Part shown: in pieces, positions 12,216 to 29,508 of the stretch
Numbering within the stretch: the stretch's first letter is position 1
How the letters are laid out: each line of letters starts with the position of its first letter
Assembly: GCA_039815185.1 (NCBI GenBank)
Contig: JBCBZT010000020.1
Span: 32,001-96,000 of the forward strand
Source of the DNA: Cyanobacteria bacterium P01_A01_bin.123
Lineage (GTDB): Bacteria > Cyanobacteriota > Cyanobacteriia > Phormidesmidales > Phormidesmidaceae
Direction: 5' to 3'
Length of the DNA: 64,000 nt
The notes under the pieces: model-generated
Told to the model about the DNA's origin: nothing
What the model saw: the letters and a program-made list of their open reading frames with translations, nothing else
The model's database searches: none
Program-made: the position numbers and the translations under genes

Positions 12216-12635
12216 CAGACGCAAAACTCCTTAGTTGACGCCGAAAACCCCTCATTCAGACCCAATAGTGATATTGGCGCTGAACAAAGAAAAGATTACA
12301 CCTCAAGCCTTTGAGGCATCTTTAAGATTGTATCCATCATAACGAATCTAGCGAAATGGTCAAGGGGGGGGCGGCAACCCGGAATCTACTAATCATTGAG
12401 ATTTTACCGCTCAACCCCTTGACATGGAGTGCTTAAAGAATTTGCCCTCCTCCCAAGTCTCAAACAGGGTAGAGCCTCACTTTGCCAGAATCATAATACG
12501 CCTTTAGGCGCCAAGCAGTTGATCTAGAGGCATTCCATACCCCTGCCAAGCCGTTCTCTTGCAAATGATGAGATGAAGGGTCTCGCGAACGAATACTCAA
12601 ACAAACAGCTGTTACTCAAATTTTGACTCGTTGAG

Positions 12636-12790
12636 AACCTCAGAAACCCATCTCAAATCTCGGTTAAGTGGCTTGATTTAAAGGCAAACAATACGGCCTA
12701 TAACAGAGTCTAACCTCAGAAACTCATCTCAAATCTTGGTTGAGTAGTTTGCTTTAAAGGTAAACGATACGGCCTATAACAGAGTCCAAC
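12636..12790. repeat. Imperfect 76-bp tandem duplication in the long leader of the DUF11 operon
   Basis: AACCTCAGAAAC(C/T)CATCTCAAATCT...ATACGGCCTATAACAGAGTC starts at 12636 and again at 12712. Confidence 0.9.
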
Positions 12791-13357: not shown

Positions 13358-15940
13358 ATGAAAAGAGCTAATCAACCCAAAAAAATTCAGGGGAAAGTCT
13401 ACCGTACAATTATTGCGGCAGCACTTGCCCTGGGCGGAACACTCCACATGGTCACCGCCGTCCTTGCCGATGGCACGGCAGCAGGCACCCAAATTACCAA
13501 CGAAGCAACCGCGACTTACGAAGACCCCAACGACCCTAACAACACACCCATCACGACCACATCAAACGAAGTGGTGGTTCAGGTCGCTGAAGTAGCCGGT
13601 ATTACCGTCCAACCTGCCGGAATTGAGTTTAATCCAACTGGCGGTGACGCAGACAACGACGGCTTGGTTGAACCCGATGATCAGCTTTACTACATCTATG
13701 AAGTCACCAACGTGGGTAACGACCCCACTGAGTTCTTCATCCCAGATACCGCTGTGGTGACAACCAATAATGGTAGCCAGGACGGCCAGATTGAAATCAG
13801 CTACGATGGCACAACCTGGGGCGATCCTCGCGATACAGGTTTTAACCCAGACGGTGATGGCATTACGGATGCTATTCCTCCAAACGGTAAGGTGCTCGTA
13901 CGGGTACCGATTCAGGTGGCTAGCAATGCTAATCCTGGCGATCCCGTTGAAGTCCGCTTGGGTAACACGCCTGGTGATGGCCAAAACCAAGATTATGTGC
14001 CCAATGGTGTACTCGATGTCTACACCTCAGACGCACCTTTCCCCACCACTGTGGGTGGTGTGGATGAAGTGGATGGTGATCCGGCTAATGGCACCCGCGA
14101 AGCCAGTGCTCGTCAGTCTATCCCGGTTGATTCGACCCTCGATACCCAACCCCTAGTCACCATCGAAAAGATTCTCAGCAACTATGAGGCAAATAACGCA
14201 GCTAGCCTGACTGACGATGAATTGACTTACGAATTGCGGTTCGAGGTTGAGGGGACAGACACTACAGGCAACACCCCTGCCTTTACCCCTGGGCCTTTGT
14301 ATCCCGTCGATGGTATCTCAGTTGATGGCGGCACTGGGTCCCATATTTTGGTATCCGACGCTCTACCCGATCACACCGTGTTGAGTGGGACACCTACTGC
14401 CCCGGCAGGTTGGACCGTAGTTTACAGTGGCACCGCCACTACCACCAATGCCCATGATGCAGATTGGTTTACCAGTTCCACTGCTCCTGGGCTGGGGGGA
14501 ACCATTACCCGGGTTGGTTTCATCAGCGATTCCTCAATTATCTCCCTAGCGCCCACCAGCGTGGTTGAAACCTTCCGGTTTACAGTAGAAACGACTAATG
14601 TACCGACTGGTTTGACCGAAGCAACCTTTGCTAATATCGCGCAAGTCTTTGGTTCTGCGGATCCCGGTGGCGACCCCAACGAACTGGTCAATGATGAATC
14701 GGGTGACAGCACCCCCAGCAACTACAATCCCACTGGCGGTACTGGCGGTACTGGCGGCTTTGACCCACCGAGCGATGGCTACATCCCTGATGACGACGAT
14801 GACGGGGTACCTGACGACATCGATCTGAACGACCCGACCGCAGGTGACGGCACTGACCCCAGCAACACCAACAGCGGTACTGGGACTGGCGGTGAAGCCA
14901 ACATCAAGACCATTGGCTTGCCTTCTAGCTTGGATCTAATCAATGGCCCTGAGAATGAGCCCGAGGCAATTGGCCCCACAGGGACGAATGATGACTTCAC
15001 CAACAAATCTGTCCCGGTTGATCCTGCCGATATCACCTTCGATGCCACCGATAGCCGCGATGAACTCGATCCTGATCCGGTCGATTTTGCCAACACGGTG
15101 CTCAACAACGGCCAAACCACGGGTGACATTACCTTGGTACCCACCCCTCCTGCGGATACCAATGATTTACCCGATGGCACTATCGTCACCATTACCGATC
15201 CCGATGGTGAGACGGCGATTTACGAGTACAACGGCACGACCTTTACCCGCACGGGCGGTACGGCTGGTGGAGATATTGTCATCCCAGATGTGGATCCCAA
15301 TGATGAAGTCACCTACGGTGTCCGGGTAGACTTGCCAGATGGCACCCCCCTCTCCACGGATACCGATGGCACCGGTAATCCAATTGGCGGCTTCCCCGTT
15401 CCGATTACAGCTACGTTGGAAGATGCCGGGGGTAATACAGCCAGCAACATCACGATTGACCAAGTTTACACGGGTTATCTGCAGCTCGCTAAAGAGTCTC
15501 GCATCCTGCAAGGCAGTGGCCCAGCGGTGCAGTCTGGTCAAGGTGACTTCAGCGCCGATCCTAAGAATCCAGCACCGGGCAACATCATTGAATATCGGGT
15601 GACCTACACCAACATCAGTGAAACAGCTTCCGGTAGCAACAACGTGGTGCTCAATGCTGAAAATGTGGTCATCAACGAGGACGGCACCGATGGCGGCAAT
15701 AATTGGGCGCTGGATAACGACAACAACAGTGTGATTGACACCAGCAATGTTCCAGGGTCTGCAACTGACTCTAACGGCGGTACCATCACCTACTACAGCG
15801 GTGCCCCGGCCAATACCCCAACTGGCGATACCTCCGGTTCAGATGCAAATACCGATGTCACTCGCTATGTCGATCAGGTTCCTGGCTTAGTCGGCCCTGG
15901 TGAATCAGGCTCCCTGATTTTCCGCCGCGTGCTGAACTAA
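13358..15940 (+). CDS. Secreted acidic DUF11/isopeptide-type Ig-repeat protein, candidate major fibre subunit (860 aa)
   Basis: Signal peptide ending AVLA; mature N-terminus DGTAAGTQITNEATATY; complete internal DUF11 domain (TIEK...VSDALP...FANIAQV); C-terminal DUF11 domain (LQLAKES...PGNIIEYRVTYTN...LIFRRVLN*); DxDxDG motifs. Confidence 0.85.
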   Translation: MKRANQPKKIQGKVYRTIIAAALALGGTLHMVTAVLADGTAAGTQITNEATATYEDPNDPNNTPITTTSNEVVVQVAEVAGITVQPAGIEFNPTGGDADNDGLVEPDDQLYYIYEVTNVGNDPTEFFIPDTAVVTTNNGSQDGQIEISYDGTTWGDPRDTGFNPDGDGITDAIPPNGKVLVRVPIQVASNANPGDPVEVRLGNTPGDGQNQDYVPNGVLDVYTSDAPFPTTVGGVDEVDGDPANGTREASARQSIPVDSTLDTQPLVTIEKILSNYEANNAASLTDDELTYELRFEVEGTDTTGNTPAFTPGPLYPVDGISVDGGTGSHILVSDALPDHTVLSGTPTAPAGWTVVYSGTATTTNAHDADWFTSSTAPGLGGTITRVGFISDSSIISLAPTSVVETFRFTVETTNVPTGLTEATFANIAQVFGSADPGGDPNELVNDESGDSTPSNYNPTGGTGGTGGFDPPSDGYIPDDDDDGVPDDIDLNDPTAGDGTDPSNTNSGTGTGGEANIKTIGLPSSLDLINGPENEPEAIGPTGTNDDFTNKSVPVDPADITFDATDSRDELDPDPVDFANTVLNNGQTTGDITLVPTPPADTNDLPDGTIVTITDPDGETAIYEYNGTTFTRTGGTAGGDIVIPDVDPNDEVTYGVRVDLPDGTPLSTDTDGTGNPIGGFPVPITATLEDAGGNTASNITIDQVYTGYLQLAKESRILQGSGPAVQSGQGDFSADPKNPAPGNIIEYRVTYTNISETASGSNNVVLNAENVVINEDGTDGGNNWALDNDNNSVIDTSNVPGSATDSNGGTITYYSGAPANTPTGDTSGSDANTDVTRYVDQVPGLVGPGESGSLIFRRVLN

Positions 15941-15957
15941 CCACCCCACCCCTCAAC

Positions 15958-15986
15958 GGTAGGCAAGTGTCTACGGCTTGCCTACC
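15958..15986 (+). terminator. Intergenic stem-loop after the first operon gene (no U-tract; RNA stabiliser or partial terminator)
   Basis: GGTAGGCAAG-9 nt-CTTGCCTACC, perfect 10-bp stem. Confidence 0.6.
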
Positions 15987-16035
15987 CCCATTCATTCATT
16001 GCAATTACCCCAAGATTAAACGGAGAACAACTACT

Positions 16036-16593
16036 ATGAAACGTTGGTTTATCGGTCTGGGTGCCCTGGTTCTAGTCGGCTCTGCCCCCTTTATTGGCAC
16101 TCCTGTCTTTGCCCAAATTCAAAAAATCACTGAGTCGATTGTCGAAACGATCCGTCGGCCCGAGGTCAAACTCACCCTAACTGCAGAAAAGCAGATTGTT
16201 GAAGTCAACACTGCTGGAGAACAAGCCACCACTTGGGAAGCGTTGGCAGGTCAAGCCCAGGTATTTCCCGGTGATGTCTTACGTTACACCATTGATGGTG
16301 CCAACTCTGGCGATGTTGAAGCTGAGAACTTGGTTATCAGCCAGGCAATTCCGGCTGAAATGACCTATGTTTTGGCTTCTGCAACCCCTGTAGAAGGGGC
16401 AGAACTGGTCTACAGCATCGATGGCGGCGAAACCTTTGTGGCTGAGCCCATGGTTGAAGTCACCCTGCCCGATGGCACGGTTGAACTCCAACCTGCACCT
16501 GCTGAAGCTTATACCCATGTTCGTTGGAGCTTTGGCGAGTCTTTGGCCTCTGCTAGCTCACTCAAAGTAGCCTACGACGTGCAGGTGAAATAA
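16036..16593 (+). CDS. Small secreted single-DUF11-domain protein (185 aa)
   Basis: GGAGA RBS, signal peptide MKRWFIG...PVFA, 'PGDVLRYTIDGANSG...NLVISQAIPAEMTYV', ends 'VAYDVQVK*'. Confidence 0.88.
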   Translation: MKRWFIGLGALVLVGSAPFIGTPVFAQIQKITESIVETIRRPEVKLTLTAEKQIVEVNTAGEQATTWEALAGQAQVFPGDVLRYTIDGANSGDVEAENLVISQAIPAEMTYVLASATPVEGAELVYSIDGGETFVAEPMVEVTLPDGTVELQPAPAEAYTHVRWSFGESLASASSLKVAYDVQVK

Positions 16594-16602
16594 GTCGGAT
16601 TG

Positions 16603-16664
16603 AAGCGCGCGATCGCAGCTATTGCTGATTCTGTCTAGCTCTCCGATAGGGCGGTCGTGCGCTT
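16603..16664 (+). terminator. Long imperfect intergenic stem-loop after the second operon gene
   Basis: AAGCGCGCGATCGC ... GCGGTCGTGCGCTT, pairing with G-U wobbles. Confidence 0.5.
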
Positions 16665-16860: not shown

Positions 16861-18375
16861 ATGACCAACCGCTCTCAACATAAACCAAACTGGCTCAAAC
16901 ACCGATGGGTTAAGTACCTGGCGACTGCGCTGCTGGCCTTTGCAATCGTTCAAAATCCGATCGCAACCCTGGCTCAGGTGCAGATACCACTGGTGAACCA
17001 GGCCACTTATGAATATTCTGACCCTGCTAGTGGCAATAACTTTCAAGGCACGTCTCGTGCGATTACCACTCAAACGTCACCGCTGGTTGATCCGCTGGGA
17101 CAAATTCTGGCGTGTAACGGCACTCAGCTTGCTAACTATGCAGGGTTTTCAGTCGCAATTTACGAAGCAGATGCCAGTGGTTTAGAACCTGCCGGTTTGC
17201 TTCCCTTAACCCGTACGGAATTTCCTGATAATCCAGGCAACAACATTCCTGGTGGTAAAGCACCCAATATTGAAAATAGTAATCCCTTCTTCTTAACCAA
17301 TGCGGATCAGGGACGCTACAACTTCTTGTTTGACCCCAATCAAGGTCAGACGGATCCGGGTCAAGTTTACATCTTGGCTGTTGACCCACCCTCAGGTTCA
17401 GAGTTCATCGAGCGCCGCATTCGCATTGAGATTCTGCAGAGTACGGGCGGTTCTAACGGCAGTATTGTGCGCTATCGGGCGACAGCCCTAGATGGTCAGC
17501 CGATCAGTGTGGCTGGGGGCAACCAAATCAGTGACAACGTGGTTGAGGTTCTGGACGCAGAAACTGGGCTGCTGAATCTCTTCTCCCTAGCACTCGGGAC
17601 GGTCATTTGCGAAAACCGACAGATTCAAATCACAAAGTCTGGCGATCGCGCTGCGGCTCAACCGGGTGACACCGCCGTGTATCGACTCGCTATTCGCAAC
17701 CTGGTGGATGTCGATCTCAACACCATCGTTGCGACCGATATACTGCCCTTTGGTTTCCGCTTCTTAGCAGATTCGGTACGGGCTCACATTAACGGCAGCC
17801 CCGTTGCCATTACCCCAGAGGTAAGTCCAGACGGCTTAACGGTGACCTTCAACGCCGAAGCCAGTATTCCCTCAGGTCAAACCCTAAACATTATTTATGC
17901 CGCCAATATTACCCCGGATGCAGTCCGCGGGTCAGCGCGTAACTCGGCAGTGGTGAATGGGATACGGGCAGACAATGGTTTATCGGTCAAAGACGGCCCG
18001 GTAAGTCATCTGATGCGTCTTGACCCCGGTATTCTCAGCGACTGCGGCACATTGATTGGCCGAGTCTTTGTTGACAAAAACTTTGATGGCGAACAGCAGC
18101 CCGGTGAACCCGGTGTGCCCAATGCCGTTGTGTTTTTGGATGACGGCAACCGCATCGTCACCGATGCAGAAGGCCTCTATTCTGTCTCCAACATGCTGCC
18201 GGGATACCGCACCGGTGCCCTCGATTTAAGCAGCCTACCGGGTTATACCCTCGCCCCCAACCTCTATTTCAGAGAACGCAATAGTCAGTCACGGCTTGTG
18301 CATCTAGCACCGGGTGGCATGGTCCGCATGAACTTTGCGGTCACCCCCACCTTCCAGGAGGAAAATCAGTCATGA
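16861..18375 (+). CDS. Secreted DUF11 + SdrD-B-like protein (504 aa), translationally coupled to the barrel gene
   Basis: Signal peptide; mature N-terminus QVQIPLVNQATYEY; complete DUF11 (IQITKSGD...ATDILP...RNSAVV); C-terminal 'IGRVFVDKNFDGEQQPGEPGVP'; ATGA overlap with the next gene. Confidence 0.87.
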   Translation: MTNRSQHKPNWLKHRWVKYLATALLAFAIVQNPIATLAQVQIPLVNQATYEYSDPASGNNFQGTSRAITTQTSPLVDPLGQILACNGTQLANYAGFSVAIYEADASGLEPAGLLPLTRTEFPDNPGNNIPGGKAPNIENSNPFFLTNADQGRYNFLFDPNQGQTDPGQVYILAVDPPSGSEFIERRIRIEILQSTGGSNGSIVRYRATALDGQPISVAGGNQISDNVVEVLDAETGLLNLFSLALGTVICENRQIQITKSGDRAAAQPGDTAVYRLAIRNLVDVDLNTIVATDILPFGFRFLADSVRAHINGSPVAITPEVSPDGLTVTFNAEASIPSGQTLNIIYAANITPDAVRGSARNSAVVNGIRADNGLSVKDGPVSHLMRLDPGILSDCGTLIGRVFVDKNFDGEQQPGEPGVPNAVVFLDDGNRIVTDAEGLYSVSNMLPGYRTGALDLSSLPGYTLAPNLYFRERNSQSRLVHLAPGGMVRMNFAVTPTFQEENQS

Positions 18376-21300
18376 AATCGTCACAGAGAAACACTATCAT
18401 CAGGGCCAGCCTATTGGGGGCGATCGCAGGCACCGTTGGCATCACAGCAAATCCTGCAACTGCATTAGCAGCAACCCAATCTATCAGCCCTAAAGCCCAA
18501 GCAGCCAACATTGCAGAATTGTCGCAAGCCGAGGCAACCTCATCTGAACTTTCCTCACGCGATCGCGAGATTGAAGTTGCTCAAATAGAGACCACAGCCG
18601 CTAGTGCACCTTCCTCAGACTCAACCAGTAGTCTTGAGGTTATTCCAGAGACATTTGCTACACAAGCAGCAGATACGCCAATCGCAGCAGACTTATTACC
18701 GTCTCCAGGAGCAGAACTCACCACTGAGATCGGGACTGAGGTTGCTGATATTGCAGACAATGAGCCGACCGCGATCGCCGATGGTGCCAGCCAGCTAGAC
18801 GGTCTTCAAGAGGCTGAAATGGAGGCGGTAGAAGCACTCACCTCGGAAGAATCAGCAGAGGACACTACCACCGTATCTGATGCAGAAGAATTAGCGGAGA
18901 CTGAGATTCAACCCCTAGATCATCAGGCATTAGCCAATCAGGTTCGGATTCTAAATCCTGTCGGCAACGCCGTTCTAGATGTGCCAGCCACCACTGTGAT
19001 TCTGGAATATCCGACTGGCGCTGATGTTGAATTGCAGGTCAATGGCACACGGGTTGACGCATCTTTGCTCGGTCGGACAGAGGTTGACGAAACCCGTAGC
19101 GTCACCGTCGAAACTTGGTATGGGGTACCGCTACAGGCAGGCACGAACAACATTGATGCGGCCATTCGAGGGACTAACACTCCCCTAACGACGATAGAGA
19201 TTCAGGTGCGTGGGGTACCGACTCAGCTTACGGTTGAAACTCGGGAAGCCCAAGTCGCTGCCGATGGTCGCTCAACAGCCACCATTCAAGGTCAACTGCT
19301 AGATGAGAACGGTAACCTTTCCAACTGGAATACAACCGTTACGTTGACGGCCACCGACGGAGAATTTGTGGGGGCAGACCTGTACCCTGATCAAGCTGGG
19401 TTTCAAGTTGAAGCTCGTAATGGTCGCTATACCACCGAACTGCGATCGCCGTTGGAAGCCCAACGGGTGCAGCTTAGGGCAACCGCAAATGGGCTAGAAG
19501 CATTTAATCAAATTCAGTTTGAAACCCAACAGCGTCCTAGCTTGGTGACTGGCGTCATCGACCTCCACTTTGGGACACGGGGCACTGACTATTACAGCAG
19601 CTTCCGAGACTTCTTACCCCCCGATGGCAACAACGGCTACGAGTTCGATGTAGACGCCGCTGTTTTTGCCATCGGGAACTTAGGAGACTGGCTGTTCACG
19701 GGGGCTTACAACAGCGATCGCTCACTGAATGAAGACTGTACCGGCAGTATTGAACTGTTTCGTGACACGCAGCGATGCGAACACAACTATCCGGTCTACG
19801 GCGATGATTCTAGCCGTGACGTTTTAGCACCTTCCATTGACAGCCTTTACCTGAGATTTGAGCGCACTTCGCCAGTGGCAGGGGCTGGAATTGACTACTT
19901 TTCGTGGGGGGATTTCAACACCGAAGAGTTTGCCACCTCATCCCAACTATTTAGCGCCACAACCCGTCAACTCCATGGCTTTAAATTTAACTACAACATT
20001 GGTGATTTAGCCGTAACCGGCTTCTATGGCGACAACGTAGACGGGTTTCAACGAGACACGATTGCGCCGGATGGCACTAGCGGCTTCTATTTCCTCTCTC
20101 GCCGTTTGCTCGTGCCCGGGAGTGAAAATATCTTCCTAGAACTAGAAGAATTGGATCGCCCTGGTACGGTCGTCGAACGTCAGGCGCTCTATCGCGGCAC
20201 CGACTACGAAATTGACTATGACCGGGGTACAATTCTGTTCCGCGATGCGGTTTTACGCACGGCTGTAGACGAGACCGGGACTGTCCTAGTGCGCCGGATT
20301 GTGGCGACCTACCAGTTTGAAGGAGACGGCACTAACACCAATATTTATGCAGGCCGCCTGCAGTACAACCTAGATCGCACTTTGAACCACGAGAGCTGGC
20401 TGGGCGCGACCTATCTCAGAGAGAACCAAGGCAACCGGAGCTTTGAACTGTATGGCGCAGACGCTCAAATTTCCTTGGGTGAAGATGCTCAGCTGATTGC
20501 AGAATTTGCCCATTCAGATAGTGATTTTGATTTGTCTGGCCCAATCAGCGGTTCAGCCTATCGGCTTGAACTTGAGGGCACGGTAACCAACTGGTTGGCT
20601 GGGCGAGCTTATTTTCGCCATACTGACGCAGGCTTTACCAACACTGCCACAACTAGCTTTGTACCGGGGCAAACCCGCTATGGCATTGAGGCAGTTGCTG
20701 CTGTCTCTGAGACAACCAACATCCGCGCCCGGTATGACCACGAAGAGAATGTCGGTACCGCACCGCGCCCGCTCTTGACCCTAAGTGAGCTGCTTGAGAC
20801 TGGCGTTTCTGCCACCCCTGGTAGCCGAGTTGATAACTCGCTAGACACCTTTTCACTGGGTATTGTTCAGCAACTTGGTGATACCAATCTAGAGTTCGAC
20901 TGGATTCACCGAGAACGCACCGATCGGATTTCTCCCAATGCTTTATCGTCGAGTTCTGATCAGCTGCGATCGCGCTTAACCACTAACTTGAGCGAAGACA
21001 TTACCCTCTTTGCCCAAAATGAGCTGAATCTGTCTTCTAATGGAGACTCAATCTATCCCAACCGCACCATCTTTGGCCTAGATTGGCAACTGATGCCCGG
21101 TATTACGCTCGGGGTCAATCAGATTTTCCTCGAAAACAACGGCATCAATGATCGCGGCGCAGTTACCACCATCGATTTGGATGCTGCCTATGCCCTAGGT
21201 GAAGACACCACCATTCGGGGTCGCTTCTCAGTTATCGATGGCACTCAAGTGGGGGGAACGGTTGGGCTAGAACAGGGCTTTACGTTGGCCCCCGGCCTGC

Positions 21301-22247
21301 GGCTTGATTTGGCTTACGAGCATGTATTTAACAACATCTCCAGTATCACTGCTGCCGGAACGCAATTTGTGCAGCCCTTTGCGGTGGGATCGGGGGCATC
21401 TTCGCTGCTGCTCACCGATGGTGACAGTTTCAGCGTCGGACTTTCTTACACTGATAATCCTGATTTGCAAGCGAGTGCCCGCCTAGAGCACCGTTCTTCC
21501 TCCCAAGGGTCTAACACAGTTTTCACAGCATCTGCCCTGGGTCGATTGTCGCCAGCAGTCAGCGTCTTATTCAACTATGAACTGGCCAGTGCTGCCAATC
21601 AATCCCTAGATGGACTGGGAACCTCTAGCACGCTGAAGCTGGGCCTTGCCTACCGAGATCCCCATAGCGATCAGTTCAATGCCCTGCTGCGTTATGAATA
21701 CCGGGGTAATCCTTCTGCTACGCCCGAGACCTTACTCTTTGGGTCTGACATCGGCTCGGAAGAACACCTCTTTACTGCTGAGGCAATTTATGCACCGAAT
21801 TGGCGCTGGGAGTTTTATGGCAAGTATGCCTTCCGCACCAGCACAACCCGCATTGGTGGCATTGGCAGCAGTGAAACGGGTGGGTTTGATGACTTTGTAT
21901 CTAACAGTGCGGTTCATCTAGCCCAGTTTAGAACCACTTATCGATTGGGATACGACTGGGATGTCGTTGGTGAAGCCCGCTGGATTGGCAGCTCTGCCGG
22001 ATATACCGAAATGGGTGCGGCCCTCGAGTTGGGCTACTATCCGACACCTGACCTGCGGTTGTCGGCGGGTTACAGCTTTGGTAGCGCCTATGACCGGGAT
22101 TTCACTGGGAGCAATCGCTCCGCTGGGGGATTTTATTTCGGCATTACTGCCAAGCTCAACAGTTTATTTGGTGGCTTTGGTCTGCAAGAGGTGGCCCCCC
22201 CTCAGCAGCAAGAGTCTGTGCTAGAAACCACTGCGACAAACAATTAA
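18372..22247 (+). CDS. Large outer-membrane beta-barrel protein with N-terminal Ig-like domains (candidate export/assembly pore)
   Basis: Signal peptide, acidic low-complexity linker, invasin-like 'ADGRSTATIQGQLLDENG', then about 800 aa of alternating amphipathic, aromatic-rich beta-strands (e.g. 'WRWEFYGKYAFR', 'LRLSAGYSFG', 'GFYFGITAKL'). Confidence 0.8.
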   Translation: MKSSQRNTIIRASLLGAIAGTVGITANPATALAATQSISPKAQAANIAELSQAEATSSELSSRDREIEVAQIETTAASAPSSDSTSSLEVIPETFATQAADTPIAADLLPSPGAELTTEIGTEVADIADNEPTAIADGASQLDGLQEAEMEAVEALTSEESAEDTTTVSDAEELAETEIQPLDHQALANQVRILNPVGNAVLDVPATTVILEYPTGADVELQVNGTRVDASLLGRTEVDETRSVTVETWYGVPLQAGTNNIDAAIRGTNTPLTTIEIQVRGVPTQLTVETREAQVAADGRSTATIQGQLLDENGNLSNWNTTVTLTATDGEFVGADLYPDQAGFQVEARNGRYTTELRSPLEAQRVQLRATANGLEAFNQIQFETQQRPSLVTGVIDLHFGTRGTDYYSSFRDFLPPDGNNGYEFDVDAAVFAIGNLGDWLFTGAYNSDRSLNEDCTGSIELFRDTQRCEHNYPVYGDDSSRDVLAPSIDSLYLRFERTSPVAGAGIDYFSWGDFNTEEFATSSQLFSATTRQLHGFKFNYNIGDLAVTGFYGDNVDGFQRDTIAPDGTSGFYFLSRRLLVPGSENIFLELEELDRPGTVVERQALYRGTDYEIDYDRGTILFRDAVLRTAVDETGTVLVRRIVATYQFEGDGTNTNIYAGRLQYNLDRTLNHESWLGATYLRENQGNRSFELYGADAQISLGEDAQLIAEFAHSDSDFDLSGPISGSAYRLELEGTVTNWLAGRAYFRHTDAGFTNTATTSFVPGQTRYGIEAVAAVSETTNIRARYDHEENVGTAPRPLLTLSELLETGVSATPGSRVDNSLDTFSLGIVQQLGDTNLEFDWIHRERTDRISPNALSSSSDQLRSRLTTNLSEDITLFAQNELNLSSNGDSIYPNRTIFGLDWQLMPGITLGVNQIFLENNGINDRGAVTTIDLDAAYALGEDTTIRGRFSVIDGTQVGGTVGLEQGFTLAPGLRLDLAYEHVFNNISSITAAGTQFVQPFAVGSGASSLLLTDGDSFSVGLSYTDNPDLQASARLEHRSSSQGSNTVFTASALGRLSPAVSVLFNYELASAANQSLDGLGTSSTLKLGLAYRDPHSDQFNALLRYEYRGNPSATPETLLFGSDIGSEEHLFTAEAIYAPNWRWEFYGKYAFRTSTTRIGGIGSSETGGFDDFVSNSAVHLAQFRTTYRLGYDWDVVGEARWIGSSAGYTEMGAALELGYYPTPDLRLSAGYSFGSAYDRDFTGSNRSAGGFYFGITAKLNSLFGGFGLQEVAPPQQQESVLETTATNN

Positions 22248-22278: not shown

Positions 22279-24426
22279 ATGATGCATCCCCTAAGCACTC
22301 GACGCTATCAGCTATTGATGGCTTGCGGTCTAGCCGCAACAACACTCGTCTCTCAAGTCGCAGTCTGGGCGCAGGCCACCCCGGCTCACGTGACTACACC
22401 ACCACCTGATCTCCACATCGTCGTCAATAGTAGTCAAGACGGCCCGATCCAGGCTGACGAGATGTTGACCTTGCGAGAAGCCATTGAACTGACTAATGGC
22501 ACCTTGCCATTGGCTTCTCTAAGTGATGTTGAACACGCTCAAGTCACTGTAGTTGAACCTGCTGAATCAGCATCGCGCATTGAGTTTAATCTCCCGGCGA
22601 ATCAAACAAAGATTCAATTGGTAACGCCGCTACCCGCAATCGCAAGCCCTGATCTAACCCTAGATGGCACTACCCAACCCGGTTATGACCCAGCCCTATC
22701 GGCAACGGCTGAAATCGAAGTGCCAATCCCAGTTGTCGAAATTACGCCAGCTCCAGAGGCTGAAGTGTTTCGGGGGTTGAGTATTGTTGCCAGTGGCGTA
22801 ACAGTACGAGGCTTGAGCCTTTATGGTTTTACCGCAGAACACCGAGCTACGGCGATTACACCACCCGCAGATATCTTTATTGCCCATCGTTTGCCACCCC
22901 CAGATACCAGCCAACAATATCCACCCGCCCAAGGGTTTTCCTATTACGACGAAAACATTCCGCCTGAGGATGTACTGATTGAACACAATTGGTTGGGGAT
23001 GCCACCGACAGAAGCCATGCCTGAGACACCTTCAGCGTTTGGGGTTTCTGTATTCAACAGCCAAGGCACAACGGTTCGTCGGAATCGCATTGCTCACCAT
23101 GACGGCAGTGCGATCATTACCGGGGCTCGGGCTGAAAATCTGAAGGTTGAAGAAAACATCTTAGTCGCCAATGGCCTAGCGGGCATGCCCGATGGCATCC
23201 GCATTGAGGGCAGCGTTGATAACAGCGTCATCAGTGGCAATCTGGTCTGCGGTAACGACGGTGCAGGGATCTTTCTGTTTAAGCCCGAAGGGGCGATTGA
23301 AATTCGCGACAACACCATCAAGTTTAATGGTCAGCGCCTGCGTCGCGCTGCGATTTACCTAATGGGCAATGGCCATCGAGTTGTCGACAACGAAATTAAT
23401 AATCAAAAAGGGCCGGGGGTGGTTGTCACCGCGTTTGGCATTGGCAGCCGCAACCCCAGCCATCGCAACTTGATTCAAAACAATGTGTTTGCCAGCCTGG
23501 AAGGCTTGAGTATTGACCTCAATACCCGCCGTCACAATGGGGTGCAAGATTTCCAGCGGGGCGATGGCCCGAATCCAGTGCGCAATTCTGACAATCGGCG
23601 GTTGGATACTGGCAATTTAGCGATTAATGCACCTCAGTTCCTGAGTCCTGAGTTCTTTGTCATGAATGGCAAAGTGATGATCGAAGGCATGGCTGATCCA
23701 GGGTCTGAGGTTGAGCTTTACCTCAGCCATGCGGCTGATTCAGCCCATGGGCCTTTGAGTCAGCCTTTGGCGACTGTTGCGGTGGATCAAGCGGGGCACT
23801 TCACATACGAATCCGCTGAACTGCCATCAGGAACCATAGTCAGCGCGATCGCATCTGATCCTCGCTATGGCACTTCAGAGCCAGCGTTAAATACCGTGGT
23901 GCGATCGCTGTCTGCTACAGATGACAACTCAGCTGCATCTAGCAATCTGGATTTTGAAGTCCCCCAGTGTACAACCCGGCCTGAGCCCCCCGAACCTGTC
24001 GTCGTGGCCCCACCCCCGCCAGAACCAATTCAACTGCAAGTGCCTCGAAACGTTCACTTTGGCCTGGATCGCGACAACATCAGTGCTGAAAGCGCGGCTG
24101 TTTTAGATCAAATTGCAGCAGCAATGCAAATCCATCCCACCTTGGTGGTGGATCTGCACGGCCACACCGACTCTCGGGCCAGTGATGCCTACAACCAAGA
24201 ATTAGCCTTGCGTCGGGCGCGCAATGCTAGAGCGTATCTGATTCAGCAAGGCATTGATCCGGCCCGGACGACAATTCGCTCGTTGGGTGAAACTCAGCTT
24301 TTAACTTCAGAGCGCGATCGCGTCGAGTATGCCCGCAACCGCCGAGTCGAATTTGTGTTTCGCGATGTCCGAGGGCTTAACATCACCTTCGTTGATCAAG
24401 ACACCGACTTACAGATCGAACCTTGA
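22279..24426 (+). CDS. Secreted right-handed beta-helix protein with C-terminal OmpA-like peptidoglycan-binding domain
   Basis: CSLREA-like 'IVVNSSQD...LTLREAI', parallel beta-helix repeats, Pro-rich linker, OmpA motifs 'VHFGLDR', 'GHTDSRASDAYNQELALRRA', 'NRRVEF'. Confidence 0.9.
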   Translation: MMHPLSTRRYQLLMACGLAATTLVSQVAVWAQATPAHVTTPPPDLHIVVNSSQDGPIQADEMLTLREAIELTNGTLPLASLSDVEHAQVTVVEPAESASRIEFNLPANQTKIQLVTPLPAIASPDLTLDGTTQPGYDPALSATAEIEVPIPVVEITPAPEAEVFRGLSIVASGVTVRGLSLYGFTAEHRATAITPPADIFIAHRLPPPDTSQQYPPAQGFSYYDENIPPEDVLIEHNWLGMPPTEAMPETPSAFGVSVFNSQGTTVRRNRIAHHDGSAIITGARAENLKVEENILVANGLAGMPDGIRIEGSVDNSVISGNLVCGNDGAGIFLFKPEGAIEIRDNTIKFNGQRLRRAAIYLMGNGHRVVDNEINNQKGPGVVVTAFGIGSRNPSHRNLIQNNVFASLEGLSIDLNTRRHNGVQDFQRGDGPNPVRNSDNRRLDTGNLAINAPQFLSPEFFVMNGKVMIEGMADPGSEVELYLSHAADSAHGPLSQPLATVAVDQAGHFTYESAELPSGTIVSAIASDPRYGTSEPALNTVVRSLSATDDNSAASSNLDFEVPQCTTRPEPPEPVVVAPPPPEPIQLQVPRNVHFGLDRDNISAESAAVLDQIAAAMQIHPTLVVDLHGHTDSRASDAYNQELALRRARNARAYLIQQGIDPARTTIRSLGETQLLTSERDRVEYARNRRVEFVFRDVRGLNITFVDQDTDLQIEP

Positions 24427-24621: not shown

Positions 24622-27600
24622 ATGAGTCTTCTACCCAGATATCTGTCACTGTTTGCGCGCGCTGCTAAAAATCGCCCCAGTGCGTTACTAGCCGCTGCAA
24701 CGATATTAACCACGACGCTGGGCTTTGTGACTCCCGCCAGGGCTGACTCCACGCTTAACGTCATCAAAACAGCGCTGGATCTGAATGGGGCAGATATTAC
24801 CGATGTTGAGTCAGGTCAGGATTTTCTGTTTGAAATTAAGTGGTCTTGTAGTTTAGACGATATCAACGTTGATATATGTGAAGACGTCCAAATCTCAGAC
24901 GTGATTCCCACCGAGCTGGAATATGTCGGTTTAGAAGAGGGAGAAGGGGCCAGAGCCAACTACAACAGCGGCACAAGAACATTCACCTACGATCTCGGCA
25001 CGATTCAGGGAGACTCGGCAGCGGGTTCAATTGCTATTAGAGTTCGCTTCCCAGAAGGAGTTACTGCCGACAACGTAACCGCCAACAACACGGCTGTTAT
25101 TGAATCCGCCACTGCAAATCCGCCAGGACAAAAGTCCAGCAGTGACGATATCACCAGTGATGTCAGCAACCCAGCAGGTAAGTGGAATGTCACTAAAAAC
25201 AAGTTGTTACCTTCCGGTGATCCCATCTTGGATGGAGATGTTACCTATGAAGTCAGCCTTGCGCCAACCCAACGTACGGGTAACCTGAATCTAGAAAACG
25301 TCGTCATGACGGACACCCCAGAGGTTGGGGCAGAAGTTGTCTCTGTGAGCAATGGCGGCGTCTTTAATGATGGCGACGGCGATGGCATCGTGGATCCGGG
25401 AGACACCATTACCTGGAACGTCGGCGATCGCACTGTAGGGCAAGAAACCTACCGAGCTCAGGTCGTATTAAGTTATCCAGCGGCCACCTTCAACTCGAGT
25501 GGTGCAGCCCCCGATACACTACCAGATGTGACAAACTCGGTCACCGGAGCCGGTACCTTTGAAGTGACTAGCGATGCCTTTAGCGACGATGGGGAAGTTA
25601 GCCACGGGTTCGTCGATCCAGATCCTGGCTTAGCCAACTTTCAAAAACGCAACCAAGGCTTTGTCTACGGCAGCCGTCCTGATATTGGCACCGAATTCTA
25701 CTACGACTATAGAATTCAAAACACGGGTAACGTTGCCTTCGATACCCTCACCGTCTTTGATGACAATTTGCCGCCAGAGGTAGATGCTCTACGCTTCCGC
25801 ACGGGTAGATACAGTAACGACGCCGGAGCGACGTTTACACTGCAATACAGTACCGACAACGTCAACTTCCAAAATGTGCCTGGGGTGGTTGATTTGGTTG
25901 TTGCCGACACTGAGCAGCAAAACTTTACCTTGCCAACAGGGACACGTGGCATTCGCATTATTTACGAAAATGCGCCTGTGGGCTTTAACGCCAATACTCG
26001 CCCCAGACTCTATGTCGAAGTGCGCACAACCATGGAAGATACAGGGGCGACGATTCAAGACGGAGAAGACATTGATAACACCGCCACCTTAACAGGTGTC
26101 TTTAATGGTAATGACTACACCGATGACGATGATGTGGAAACCTTTGTCGATCGCCCCCGTGCCGTAGGCATCATTAGCAAAGAGGATTTAACCAATAGCG
26201 GCCCTTACGCGCCGTCTGAGCTAGTTGAGTTTCGGTTGACTGCGGGCAACCGTCGCAATGCCCGCAGAACTCTGGAAAATCCGGTCGTGGTCGATATTCT
26301 GCCCGATGGCCTAGCCTATGTGGCAAATTCCTATGTGTTTGATGCTGGCGATAGTGGCCTGTCAGCACCGTCTAATTTCGAAGTCATTGAAAACTACAAC
26401 GGTAGTGGCCAAACCCTCTTACGCTGGACTTGGGAAGGTCAAGCTGCGGATTATGACGATGGGTCCGACGGTAACGCTTTTAATGACGACAAGACCTGGA
26501 CGATTACCTATAAAGCCGGGATTGAAGAAGGTGATATCCAGGGCAGCATCACCAATACGGTTTACCTCAGTACCTACGACACAAGTACCGACCCGGCAGA
26601 TTTTGTTTGCCATAGCAGGGGTGACAACGATATTGGTGATAGCGACGACATTGATGGCGACGGCAAGACCGGGGACGACAATGTTTACAACAGCAACTCA
26701 TCCACAACTAACGATAATCCCCTCTGCCGTGCCACCGCAGATGTAACCGTTACCACGCTGCCCTTCCTCGAAGCACGTAAACGGGTACAGGGTGGATTAA
26801 ACAACAGCTACGAGATCAGTGGTCAGAGCTATCCCGGTGGTGCAGTCGATTATCAAATCACCGTTACCAACACCGGTACTACGCCCATTGAAGACTTGGT
26901 CGTCGTCGATATCTTCCCCAATATTGACGACACCAGTGTGCTCAATACCAACGTGCCGAGGAATTCTGAGTGGCGACCTTATTTGGTTGGCCCCATCGAA
27001 GTCCAAGTCCCCACGGCTCAGGTTTACTATAGTGTGTCGTCAAATCCATGCCGTCTGAATCCATTAGACGGTACTGATCAGCTTTGGCCACCCGGTTGCG
27101 TTGATGACTGGACAACCACCTTCCCCAATGACCCTACTACGGTCACAGCGGTCAAGATTGACTACGGCAGCTTCAGGCTCAATCCATTGACCTCGCTGAC
27201 AAACGATTGGCCCATGCGGGTGCCGGTCGTTGCCCCTACCAATGAATCAGCCTTTAATTCCTTTGCCCTCACCGGACGACGCATCGATCGCACCTCTCCC
27301 CTACTACCCCAAGAACCGCCTCGGGTAGAGGTCGACTTACAAACCGACGATCCACCGGTTTTGGGTGATTTTGTCTGGAACGATGCTAATAACAACGGCG
27401 TTCAAGACGATGGTGAGAATGGTATCAATGGGGTAGTAGTCGAGCTTTACCGCCCCGGTGCTGATGGCATTCCGGGGACGCCAGACGACGAGTTCGTCGA
27501 CTTCACCATGACCGGGCCAAACCACTTTGGTTTCCCTGGCTTTTATGAGTTTGCCTATCTCGATCCAGGTGACTACTTTCTGAAATTCATTCCGCCCACG

Positions 27601-29508
27601 GGCTCAGGCTATTTCTTTACCAGTAGCAGTGGTACCGATCGCGACGATGGGACAGGTTCTGATGCTAATCAGACAACCGGCTTAACCGATGTGATTACTA
27701 TCGCCAGCGGCGACGACGAACGCGACATTGATGCGGGTCTTACCACCACCCCACCAACAGGCCAAGCCACCCTGGGTGACTATGTCTGGTTAGATGCCAA
27801 TGGTGATGGCATTCAAGATGCCAATGAAACGGGTGTTAACGGGGTCAGCGTCATGCTCTATCAGAGTGACGGCACCTTTGTGGGCACCACCCAAACCAGT
27901 AATGACACCAATGGTAATCCGGGGTATTACATCTTCCAAAACCTGCCACCCGGTGATTACTACGTCGAGTTCAATCCACCCGCAGGGTACAATGCTTCTC
28001 CGCAAAGTCAGGGGAGCGACACAGCTCAAGACTCCGATGCTGATCCCACCGATGTCGATGGGACAACGCCAGGAACCCAAGCCCGAACAAATCCATTTAC
28101 CCTCAGCGCAGGTCAAAACGAAACTGATATCGATTTCGGGATCGTGCCCCAACCGCGTATCGGTGACTATGTCTGGATTGACCTCAACCGTGACGGCATC
28201 CAGGATGGAACAGAGGTTGGGCTCAATGGCGTCACAGTCAATCTCTATGAAGACGGTAATCTCACCCCCGTAGACACGATCGTGACTGCCGACGATATTC
28301 AAGGCAATCCTGGTTATTATGCCTTTGCCACTGGAGGACTTAGCGGTGACTATTCGATTGAGTTTGTGCTGCCTAGCGGATATGAATTTTCGCCACAAAA
28401 CTCTGGCAGCGATGACACCCTCGACTCAGATGTCAATACCGCAACGGGGCGCATTGAGATTACTGGCGTCACCAACACAACCACTGATTTGAGTCTAGAT
28501 GCTGGGGTCAACCAACCGGCACCAGGGCCTGGCTTCGTAGGCGACTTTGTCTGGTTAGATCTCGATGAAGATGGCATTCAAGATCCAACCGAAACTGGCT
28601 TTAACGATGTCACGGTCAGACTGCGTAGGGCTAGCGATGACAGCCTTTATGCTGAGACAGTCACAGCAGATTCTCTGGGGCGACCTGGCTACTATCTGTT
28701 TAGCAACGTACCGGATGATGACTACTATGTTGAATTCGTACTGCCAGAAGACTACTTAGCCTCACCTGCAAATGCTGGCAGTGATGACTCGGAAGATTCC
28801 GATGTGGATAGTGCGGATGCAGATCCGAATGTGTCAGGGGTAGAGACTGATGCGGATCTGAGTACGAGTGCGATTGAGCTAAGAACGCCATCATTCAACG
28901 TGACTAGCACCTCCGACAATCGCACTATTGACATGGGGATTTACCGTGACCCTAATGCCCCTGAACCTCCAAGCGTGGTGCTACTCAAGCGAATCACAGC
29001 TATTAATAACGTTCCTATTGCCTTCGACGGGCCTCAAACCCCAGAAGAAGATGAGGTTGATGATCTATTTCCATCTAACTTTTTAGAAGGGACAGTGGAT
29101 GGCGGTGAAACGAGACCGGGCGATGAAATTGAGTACACGATCTACTTTATTTCTAACGGCGATCGCGCAGCTGAAAATGTGGCTTTCTGCGACCTAGTGC
29201 CAGAATACACAACGATCAGTTCAACTGCTTTCAATGCCAACCCAGCCACCCAAGATACGGGGGGAATCCCAGGGGCCGATCGCGGCATTGTGCTCGGTCT
29301 TGGTAGTGATGAACTCTCAATGACCAATGTGGCCGATGGCGATCGCGGGGTTTATGTACAACCGGGTGATCCGACTGGACTCGACTGTGGCGGCCCGAAT
29401 AGCAATGGTGCCGTAGTTGTGTTCATTGGCGATATTCCCAACGCTAACGGCAACCCAAACCCCAACACCTCCTACGGATTCGTCAGATTCCGAGCGCGGG
29501 TGCAGTAG
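24622..29508 (+). CDS. Large secreted adhesin-like protein: five DUF11 domains, four SdrD B-like repeats, C-terminal truncated DUF11 (1628 aa)
   Basis: Signal peptide ending PARA; repeated K...(T/V)D.(L)P...N(T/S) domains; four (L/I/V)GD(F/Y)VWxDxNx(D/N)G(I/V)QD repeats from 27361; ends 'YGFVRFRARVQ*'. Confidence 0.88.
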   Translation: MSLLPRYLSLFARAAKNRPSALLAAATILTTTLGFVTPARADSTLNVIKTALDLNGADITDVESGQDFLFEIKWSCSLDDINVDICEDVQISDVIPTELEYVGLEEGEGARANYNSGTRTFTYDLGTIQGDSAAGSIAIRVRFPEGVTADNVTANNTAVIESATANPPGQKSSSDDITSDVSNPAGKWNVTKNKLLPSGDPILDGDVTYEVSLAPTQRTGNLNLENVVMTDTPEVGAEVVSVSNGGVFNDGDGDGIVDPGDTITWNVGDRTVGQETYRAQVVLSYPAATFNSSGAAPDTLPDVTNSVTGAGTFEVTSDAFSDDGEVSHGFVDPDPGLANFQKRNQGFVYGSRPDIGTEFYYDYRIQNTGNVAFDTLTVFDDNLPPEVDALRFRTGRYSNDAGATFTLQYSTDNVNFQNVPGVVDLVVADTEQQNFTLPTGTRGIRIIYENAPVGFNANTRPRLYVEVRTTMEDTGATIQDGEDIDNTATLTGVFNGNDYTDDDDVETFVDRPRAVGIISKEDLTNSGPYAPSELVEFRLTAGNRRNARRTLENPVVVDILPDGLAYVANSYVFDAGDSGLSAPSNFEVIENYNGSGQTLLRWTWEGQAADYDDGSDGNAFNDDKTWTITYKAGIEEGDIQGSITNTVYLSTYDTSTDPADFVCHSRGDNDIGDSDDIDGDGKTGDDNVYNSNSSTTNDNPLCRATADVTVTTLPFLEARKRVQGGLNNSYEISGQSYPGGAVDYQITVTNTGTTPIEDLVVVDIFPNIDDTSVLNTNVPRNSEWRPYLVGPIEVQVPTAQVYYSVSSNPCRLNPLDGTDQLWPPGCVDDWTTTFPNDPTTVTAVKIDYGSFRLNPLTSLTNDWPMRVPVVAPTNESAFNSFALTGRRIDRTSPLLPQEPPRVEVDLQTDDPPVLGDFVWNDANNNGVQDDGENGINGVVVELYRPGADGIPGTPDDEFVDFTMTGPNHFGFPGFYEFAYLDPGDYFLKFIPPTGSGYFFTSSSGTDRDDGTGSDANQTTGLTDVITIASGDDERDIDAGLTTTPPTGQATLGDYVWLDANGDGIQDANETGVNGVSVMLYQSDGTFVGTTQTSNDTNGNPGYYIFQNLPPGDYYVEFNPPAGYNASPQSQGSDTAQDSDADPTDVDGTTPGTQARTNPFTLSAGQNETDIDFGIVPQPRIGDYVWIDLNRDGIQDGTEVGLNGVTVNLYEDGNLTPVDTIVTADDIQGNPGYYAFATGGLSGDYSIEFVLPSGYEFSPQNSGSDDTLDSDVNTATGRIEITGVTNTTTDLSLDAGVNQPAPGPGFVGDFVWLDLDEDGIQDPTETGFNDVTVRLRRASDDSLYAETVTADSLGRPGYYLFSNVPDDDYYVEFVLPEDYLASPANAGSDDSEDSDVDSADADPNVSGVETDADLSTSAIELRTPSFNVTSTSDNRTIDMGIYRDPNAPEPPSVVLLKRITAINNVPIAFDGPQTPEEDEVDDLFPSNFLEGTVDGGETRPGDEIEYTIYFISNGDRAAENVAFCDLVPEYTTISSTAFNANPATQDTGGIPGADRGIVLGLGSDELSMTNVADGDRGVYVQPGDPTGLDCGGPNSNGAVVVFIGDIPNANGNPNPNTSYGFVRFRARVQ

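Follow-up and report, generated by a model that had tools for sequence, protein, structure and literature searches.

In known donor-strand pili, a chaperone occupies the groove of the subunit and so prevents polymerisation in the periplasm; the PapD/FimC chaperones donate a strand to that groove. Strand donation to pilus subunits is also described for TapA (PMC10151520) and ElrE (10.64898/2026.10.17.759780). In BsaA fibres of Clostridium perfringens (PMC11580942) and in an archaeal thread (PMC9715654), donor-strand exchange is reported to be locked by an intermolecular Lys-Asn bond. The DUF11 domain, renamed CLIPPER, has a crystal structure with a Lys715-Asn806 bond beside Asp748 (PMC12617251); the accessible text of that paper presents an intramolecular Lys-Asp-Asn domain in adhesin stalks and mentions DUF11 domains without bonds, and split or stand-alone acceptors are absent from it. 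The accessible portions of other DUF11 papers deal with a signal peptide and with a repeat filament. In SpyCatcher, substitution of the catalytic Glu by Gln, Asn, Ala or Gly is reported to abolish the reaction, while the Ala form binds the tag reversibly (PMC6465384).

The window analysed here, a stretch of 64,000 nucleotides from a cyanobacterial genome, encodes a small protein, g2, which is a real, widespread and doubly disarmed CLIPPER half-domain. It resembles CLIPPER/DUF11 (PF01345, TIGR01451, 9IFR) in family scores and in its CnaA-like sandwich, but it stands alone, is without the last two strands, and has two added hairpins; the Lys, the catalytic Asp/Glu and the same-chain Asn strand of isopeptide-forming CLIPPER domains are all missing. 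Proposed here to control the moment at which subunits join, g2 would be, as PapD/FimC, TapA and ElrE are, a dedicated partner of a donor-strand pilin outside the set of subunits. Its gene stands with the pilin gene and, as for PapD, with one for an outer-membrane platform, which is here a predicted barrel; a periplasmic location is predicted from the putative signal peptide. However, PapD, TapA and ElrE donate a strand, whereas g2 is the groove itself, a homologue of the subunit, and would cover the donor.

The joint chemistry that we infer for the neighbouring genes g1, g3 and g6 is that of BsaA and the archaeal thread, whose accessible descriptions involve folds of the TasA family or of archaea and include neither an outer-membrane barrel nor a dead acceptor. 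SpyDock, a non-reactive SpyCatcher described as binding its tag reversibly (PMC6465384), is like g2 a split isopeptide domain without the catalytic acid. As described there, SpyDock is engineered, has the CnaB fold, takes a one-strand tag and keeps its Lys, whereas g2 is natural and CnaA-like, would take a two-strand hairpin and has also lost the Lys. A literature search by title and abstract, with most subscription papers outside its range, returned no paper on this operon. The family is known, and g2 would add to it a plausible new chaperone principle, with donor binding as its prediction.

The operon and the anatomy of g2

The gene for g2 is the second in a run of six on the + strand, which extends from g1 (13358-15940) through g2, g3, g4 and g5 to the end of g6 at 29508. 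The gene order and the stem-loop downstream of g2 agree with the sequence-only reading of this DNA, a preliminary interpretation in which g2 was taken to be a possible dedicated chaperone or cap. The features are listed below in window coordinates.

13358..15940, + strand: g1, major subunit of 860 aa with an N-terminal donor hairpin and a C-terminal covalent-type acceptor (DUF7925)
13469..13588, + strand: donor hairpin of g1, residues 38-77, reactive Asn codon 13499; presumed ligand of g2
16036..16593, + strand: g2, small acceptor-only DUF11/CLIPPER protein of 185 aa (ORF translation, family profiles)
16036..16113, + strand: predicted Sec signal peptide of g2, residues 1-26 (inspection of the sequence)
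16177..16179, + strand: Leu48 of g2, at the isopeptide Lys position (structural alignment, couplings, orthologue columns)
16189..16191, + strand: Lys52 of g2, K+4 residue and predicted partner of Asp80, not the reactive Lys (couplings)
16297..16299, + strand: Gly88 of g2, where covalent acceptors carry a donor-facing Tyr/Phe (alignment columns)
16342..16344, + strand: Gln103 of g2, at the catalytic Asp position, codon CAG (alignment columns, couplings)
16447..16494, + strand: inserted, family-specific beta-hairpin of g2, residues 138-153 (DSSP strands 139-143 and 149-153)
16603..16664, + strand: RNA stem-loop after g2, probable mRNA stabiliser or attenuator (folding against shuffles)
16861..18375, + strand: g3, adaptor with donor Asn46 and one complete CLIPPER domain (K259/D293/N361)
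18372..22247, + strand: g4, protein with Ig-like domains at its N-terminus and a predicted outer-membrane barrel (Invasin_D3, DUF2490)
22279..24426, + strand: g5, beta-helix and OmpA peptidoglycan-binding domain (Pfam-type domain matches)
24622..29508, + strand: g6, tip-type protein, DUF11 and SdrD_B repeats, covalent-type acceptor at the C-terminus (K1456, D1524)

The donor Asn48 of g1 is invariant (61/61 g1 sequences). The adaptor g3 has an SdrD_B-like end and no open acceptor, and the barrel of g4 is predicted from its sequence pattern. An AF2 model of the g1 acceptor, computed without an alignment, reached a pLDDT of 37 and was discarded. In 79/80 loci g1 lies directly upstream of g2, the sole exception being a contig end, and g3 lies downstream in 74/80, the other loci being located at the end of a contig or close to one. 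The order is reversed in Sericytochromatia, Deinococcus and Thermus, where the major gene comes after the small one; on a Novosphingobium plasmid the small gene is placed between two pilin genes. The system spans cyanobacteria, Sericytochromatia, Deinococcus-Thermus and sphingomonads, and the closest named matches of g2 are from Leptolyngbyaceae.

Several individual loci differ from this arrangement or add to it. On plasmid P2 of Deinococcus gobiensis (L092:8935-11003), the small gene forms a pair with a major-type gene, and none of the annotated features up to 7 kb downstream is a gene the size of a barrel, as if the two-gene module had moved alone. On a Thermus brockianus plasmid (L094:7779-9354), the operon directly follows, on one strand with it, a carotenoid/photolyase cluster, a hint of shared light regulation. 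Donor-bearing genes downstream of tip/OmpA genes (L053:18291-20489, L078:18875-20560 and L171:1626-6259) may encode minor subunits; the one seen whole is a frameshifted gene with a tip-type acceptor at its end. At 12629-12790 of the window, within the long region that precedes g1, two similar stretches of about 70 bases can be seen by eye.

The protein has one domain of about 145 residues. Ala26, the last residue of the predicted signal peptide, is kept in 120/120 relatives (the best 120 of 285 matches), and inspection revealed neither a lipobox nor a donor motif after it. Cyanobacterial g2 proteins have an extra, apparently amphipathic stretch of 15 residues at this point (window 16114-16158, low pLDDT), which is missing in Thermus and Sericytochromatia. 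The protein scores 30.4 bits against TIGR01451, above the curated threshold of 24, and passes PF01345 marginally (24.9 bits against a cut-off of 24.6, residues 73-121 only).

The AF2 model of g2 has a mean pLDDT of 81.5 and aligns with CLIPPER 9IFR over 91 residues (Z 8.4, rmsd 2.4); unrelated sandwiches tie with 9IFR (best Z 9.0), so the CnaA-like fold alone is not specific. Sequence searches of the PDB found no relative, and Foldseek returned nothing at E <= 0.001, its top weak match being TTHA1873. A match to the PapD family, whose members have two domains as against one in g2, was not listed by Pfam, NCBIfam, the PDB sequence search or the fold search. The hairpin at residues 138-153 falls in a gap of the repeat profile, i.e. 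it is absent from plain DUF11 repeats; together with the PAPA motif that follows, it is strongly conserved and specific to the g2 family, and the coupling analysis was too noisy to place it.

The chain of g2 ends early. Its profile aligns to the repeat consensus as far as column 92 of 126, short of the Asn strand, and the matches of the model to SpaA and RrgB stop at 311 and 307, 10-11 residues before the reactive Asn321 and Asn318 reported for these proteins (PMC11231552). The profile and structural alignments thus bear out the absence of the Asn strand that had been read from the sequence. The two missing strands are those carried at the N-termini of g1 and g3. g2 is therefore a single CLIPPER acceptor half-domain, whose chain ends before the two strands with the reactive Asn. 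Compared with the covalent tips of the g6 class, it has no cargo, no Lys and no Asp.

Reactive positions of g2 and its orthologues

Translation of 16036-16593 gives the motif ISQAIP with the Gln codon at 16342, which the sequence-only reading had singled out. The acidic motifs that it set against this one are likewise present: VSDALP in g1 (codon 14357), ATDILP in the adaptor (17737), and VVDILP (26293) and FCDLVP (29191) in g6. The C-terminal acceptor of g1, missing from that list, reads VINEDG and carries Glu774. As a control set we used ordinary repeats from the long repeat proteins that dominate a profile search of 1.8 billion representatives. Aligned to the g2 family profile, 1311/1356 of these repeats (from 118 long proteins) have D/E in column 103, and in a coupling analysis of 2106 ordinary repeats the Lys, the column-103 Asp and the Asn are among the most strongly coupled pairs. 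Column 103 of g2 is, on these alignments, the catalytic column of CLIPPER domains.

Three lines of evidence place the isopeptide Lys at residue 48. At the start of the structural alignments, model residue 43 coincides with RrgB 188 and SpaA 194, so that RrgB Lys193 and SpaA Lys199, as numbered in PMC11231552, fall on g2 residue 48 if the first strand is ungapped. Strand A-B couplings lie 84/86/88 from the Lys in the 2106 repeats and at 132/134/136 in g2, which gives a Lys position of 48 on weaker data (effective depth 156-238). In the repeats, moreover, a Pro at K-6 is coupled to Ala96, and another Lys, at K+4, to Asp80; the g2 couplings P42-A96, V44-A96 and K52-D80 match this pattern, with K52-P78 in addition, and Lys52 is therefore the K+4 residue rather than the isopeptide Lys. 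The residue numbers that we take to apply to BcpA and SpaD also put the isopeptide Lys on residue 48, as would 9IFR if its numbering counts the tag. In contrast, an hhalign profile-profile alignment put Lys52, not Leu48, on Lys712 of g1.

Taken together, the alignments and couplings indicate that the isopeptide Lys of g2 is replaced by Leu48, a change that the sequence-only reading missed. Its proposal that g2 does not lock donors covalently gains from this, with Lys and acid both gone, and g2 cannot form a Lys-Asn bond. A rule in which Lys52 is the reactive Lys and never co-occurs with the acid was considered and dropped, being broken by the orthologues at L105 and L111.

The orthologues consist of 442 distinct g2 sequences. 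Column 48 is Leu in 232, Val in 145, Met in 55, Ile in 5, Gln in 2, Ala in 1 and a gap in 2, and Lys in none; the sphingomonad strand can alternatively be aligned with Gly in this column, and Lys appears in neither alignment. Column 103 is Gln in 253, Asn in 149, Gly in 16, Ala in 10, Asp in 5, Leu in 5, Ile in 2, Glu in 1 and Arg in 1, and all six Asp/Glu carriers keep Leu48. Column 52 is Lys in 374/442. The live acceptors retain both residues: g1 has Lys712 in 88/88 and Glu/Asp774 in 88/88, and tip-type acceptors have the catalytic Asp in 20/20, with a Lys motif recognised in 17/20. Since the 442 sequences are kin, these counts show conservation and not 442 independent events; a single loss of the Lys in their ancestor would account for every one of them.

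The residue in column 103 follows the clade: Gln in cyanobacteria, Asn in the sphingomonad type, Leu/Ile in Deinococcus-Thermus, and Gly/Ala in Sericytochromatia and another group. Among the best 120 of 285 matches, Gln103 is kept in 120/120, and Asn in 120/120 sphingomonad-type matches. A quick tree of 73 rows, thinned by residue, has ten changes at this column and groups the five Asp carriers together. The expectation of a conserved non-acidic residue therefore holds for the lack of acid (Asp/Glu in 6/442) and fails for the single conserved residue. Gln, taken by the sequence-only reading as the key change, is by the same columns a cyanobacterial detail, and the Lys is the residue gone in 442/442. 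Because the Lys is also lost, the Gln-to-Asp exchange proposed there should not by itself restore capture and would give a false negative.

Column 88 also sets g2 apart. It is Tyr in 86/88 g1 acceptors and Phe/Tyr in 20/20 tip-type acceptors, whereas 88% of cyanobacterial g2 proteins have Gly/Ser; the Asn group has Tyr, and of the 33 rows that belong neither to the cyanobacterial type nor to the Asn group, most have Ala/Val. This difference from live acceptors points to a remodelled groove that may refuse a donor: the change could loosen donor binding, or could mean that no donor binds. The groove-lining columns 46, 84, 86 and 101 remain hydrophobic in cyanobacterial g2.

Some orthologues merit separate mention. 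Asp in one cyanobacterial clade and Glu in one genome, each with Leu kept, are natural controls for Gln-to-Asp; the acid-bearing loci are L088:8564-9133, L097:8944-9507, L111, L134, L135 and L105, and NIES970_28260 is one of the Asp-bearing orthologues. Second g2 copies lie just upstream of g1 or a few kb off (L126:3673-4344, L130:3642-4208 and L049:6497-7168), and at least one of them has Arg in column 103. At L098:4319-6898 in genome G237, a predicted secreted protein of 860 aa has repeats and a g2-type dead acceptor at its C-terminus. Its N-terminus reads as hydrolase-like, with nothing over the Pfam cut-off, and it sits outside the operon, which G237 has as well.

Coupling to g1 and position in the transcript

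In one draw of 401 cyanobacterial genomes, g2 occurs in 122, DUF7925, the marker of g1, in 121, and both together in 118; the barrel occurs in 163 and tip-type acceptors in 161. By inspection, the four g2 genomes without a DUF7925 match have a shorter or broken g1 beside g2, so that a major subunit with both donor and acceptor is present in all 122, recognised by family search in 118 and by inspection in 4. Of the three genomes with DUF7925 alone, one contains a frameshifted g1 at the end of a contig, one a truncated g1 that runs into a tip gene, and one an unrelated protein of 2345 aa. That last protein is the only DUF7925 match among the 43 genomes with a barrel and no g2.

Short loci, drawn from barrel loci of g2-negative genomes and from second barrel copies of g2-positive genomes, provide a natural control. 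In 21/21 short loci with enough upstream sequence, the adaptor stands directly before the barrel, and g1 and g2 are both absent; these loci were selected for lacking g2, and the result is that they lack g1 too. Tip-type acceptors follow the barrel wherever its far side is visible. Left out of the count were L155 and L168, whose contigs end at the adaptor, L151, which was replaced by L174, and L148/L171/L175 (G204), a decayed locus with its barrel cut by a transposase-like gene. The decayed locus retains a frameshifted donor-plus-acceptor gene without g2; it was not taken as a counter-example, and the gene indicates that minor subunits are among the tip-type matches. By the short loci, g2 is dispensable for the barrel, the adaptor donor and the tip acceptor, which speaks against a role in folding open acceptors. 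Its tie is to g1, the donor-plus-acceptor subunit and the one that could cyclise or self-polymerise.

The stem-loop at 16603-16664 is modestly more stable than shuffled sequence (z -2.55; 3/200 shuffles equally stable) and is not a consensus terminator; a promoter and terminator scan gave nothing above shuffles, and no RNA holder was listed. In a survey of every second locus, a hairpin with z < -2 follows g2 in 32/39 loci, g1 in 26/38 and g3 in 2/35. The conserved hairpin after g1 lies at 15941-16035 of the window, and the transcript may step down twice, after g1 and after g2. In loci that begin with g2, a hairpin comes after the major gene in 7/10 and after the small gene in 1/10; all gene orders seen place g2 and the major subunit on one side of the hairpin. 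By these positions, g2 shares the presumably more stable segment of the transcript.

The codon bias odds ratio against the barrel gene is 1.58 for g1 (above 1 in 63/69 loci), 1.14 for g2 (43/70) and 1.05 for g3. The value for g2 is near that of the adaptor and not that of g1, which does not support equal abundance with the major subunit. Genome-wide CAI gave the 78th percentile for g1 and the 81st for g2, from a reference set that never converged on recognisably highly expressed genes, so that these percentiles carry little weight. High expression of g2 alongside the major subunit, an earlier suggestion, is thus weakly supported: the hairpin position that spoke for it is conserved, but the codon bias lends it no support.

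A proposed holder of the g1 donor and its alternatives

Our preferred reading, to which we give an even chance, is that g2 is a reversible holder of the g1 donor hairpin, the mirror image of PapD. It builds on the loss of both reactive residues, the half-domain anatomy and the coupling to g1, and predicts export and donor binding; an engineered precedent is SpyCatcher, unreactive once its catalytic Glu is replaced and, in the Ala form, reported to bind reversibly (PMC6465384). In particular, g2 would be exported to the periplasm after its Sec signal, and its groove would take the N-terminal donor hairpin of g1 without a covalent bond, so that g1 would be kept from cyclising or polymerising there. 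The hairpin would be passed to a live acceptor at the predicted outer-membrane barrel, where the irreversible bond would drive release from the dead g2 in a ratchet-like manner, and neighbours would polymerise by donor-hairpin complementation and Lys-Asn bonds. This full sequence of events, in which a disarmed copy of the socket escorts the donor hairpin, is displaced by irreversible isopeptide capture and forms with g1 a two-gene polymerisation module, we rate slightly below even.

In a short operon, the adaptor donor and the tip acceptor would join once, with no runaway risk; the g1 and g2 module would turn this one-step adhesin display (adaptor, barrel, tip) into a covalent pilus. With g1 added, chains become possible, and with covalent joints errors become permanent, which a dead acceptor over the donor would prevent. 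A fibre that locks covalently cannot undo mistakes and so needs a firmer brake than known donor-strand pili. If g2 works as proposed, that brake is a disarmed copy of the subunit's own socket, the opposite of a groove-filling chaperone. The strict coupling to g1 and the absence from short operons fit the brake on premature polymerisation that the sequence-only reading had suggested.

An unlikely competitor is that g2 binds the donor non-covalently and remains on the fibre, where it would cap g1 chains at their free donor end, nucleate them or regulate their length. The half-domain anatomy and the tracking of g1 by g2 fit this equally well, an acceptor-only protein is topologically a tip, the L098 fusion carries its g2-type domain at the C-terminus of an 860-aa cargo, as tips are built, and the modest codon bias suits a low copy number. 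However, covalent tip-type acceptors are already encoded in 117/122 g2 genomes (at least two in 57 of them), although some of these matches are donor-bearing minor subunits, and a separate permanent cap looks redundant beside them. Cargo is almost never joined to g2 (a single long ORF among the matches listed), the g2 gene lies before the hairpin together with the major gene and not with the tips, and a permanent cap offers no reason for the exclusion of Lys in 442/442.

It is rather doubtful that g2 holds no donors at all, its groove being closed or remodelled, and that it lends the hairpin 138-153 to the g1 acceptor in the manner of PapD or docks g1 on the periplasmic domains of the barrel. 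The family-specific conservation of this hairpin and of the PAPA motif speaks for such a role, as do the unusual column 88, the need of a domain missing two strands to gain stability somehow, and the strand donation described for the pilus chaperones TapA (PMC10151520) and ElrE (10.64898/2026.10.17.759780). Yet short operons, which have no g2, contain tip acceptors that lack these two strands as well, and open acceptors can thus in general do without g2; the predicted strands of the hairpin have 5 residues each against about 9 per donor strand; and groove columns 46, 84, 86 and 101 stay hydrophobic. Far less probable is covalent bonding by g2 in some lineages, through a chemically active amide or a truly reactive Lys52. 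The uniform amides within clades (Gln and Asn, 120/120 each), Lys in 374/442 at column 52 and the hhalign register would suit it, and under that register L105 and L111 would carry Lys plus acid; the three lines that put the reactive position at 48, the Gly, Ala, Leu, Ile or Arg at column 103 in 34 orthologues, and the reported loss of SpyCatcher reaction upon amide substitution (PMC6465384) all stand against it.

The predictions of the reversible-holder reading could be tested cheaply, with a domain of 147 residues and a peptide of 40 residues. A natural pair of reversible and irreversible catchers on the CnaA fold would complement SpyCatcher/SpyDock for engineering. Short and long operons in one genome furthermore offer a ready-made genetic comparison. 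The source genome has a second, short operon on the - strand (G000:C92:201474-213882; L170:5474-17882), with an adaptor (344-aa frame), a barrel, an OmpA protein and two tip-type genes, and with neither g1 nor g2. This type of operon may be a one-step system for covalent adhesin display, and similar loci are found in many cyanobacteria. Several short operons adjoin a gene that, judged from its N-terminus, resembles trpA.
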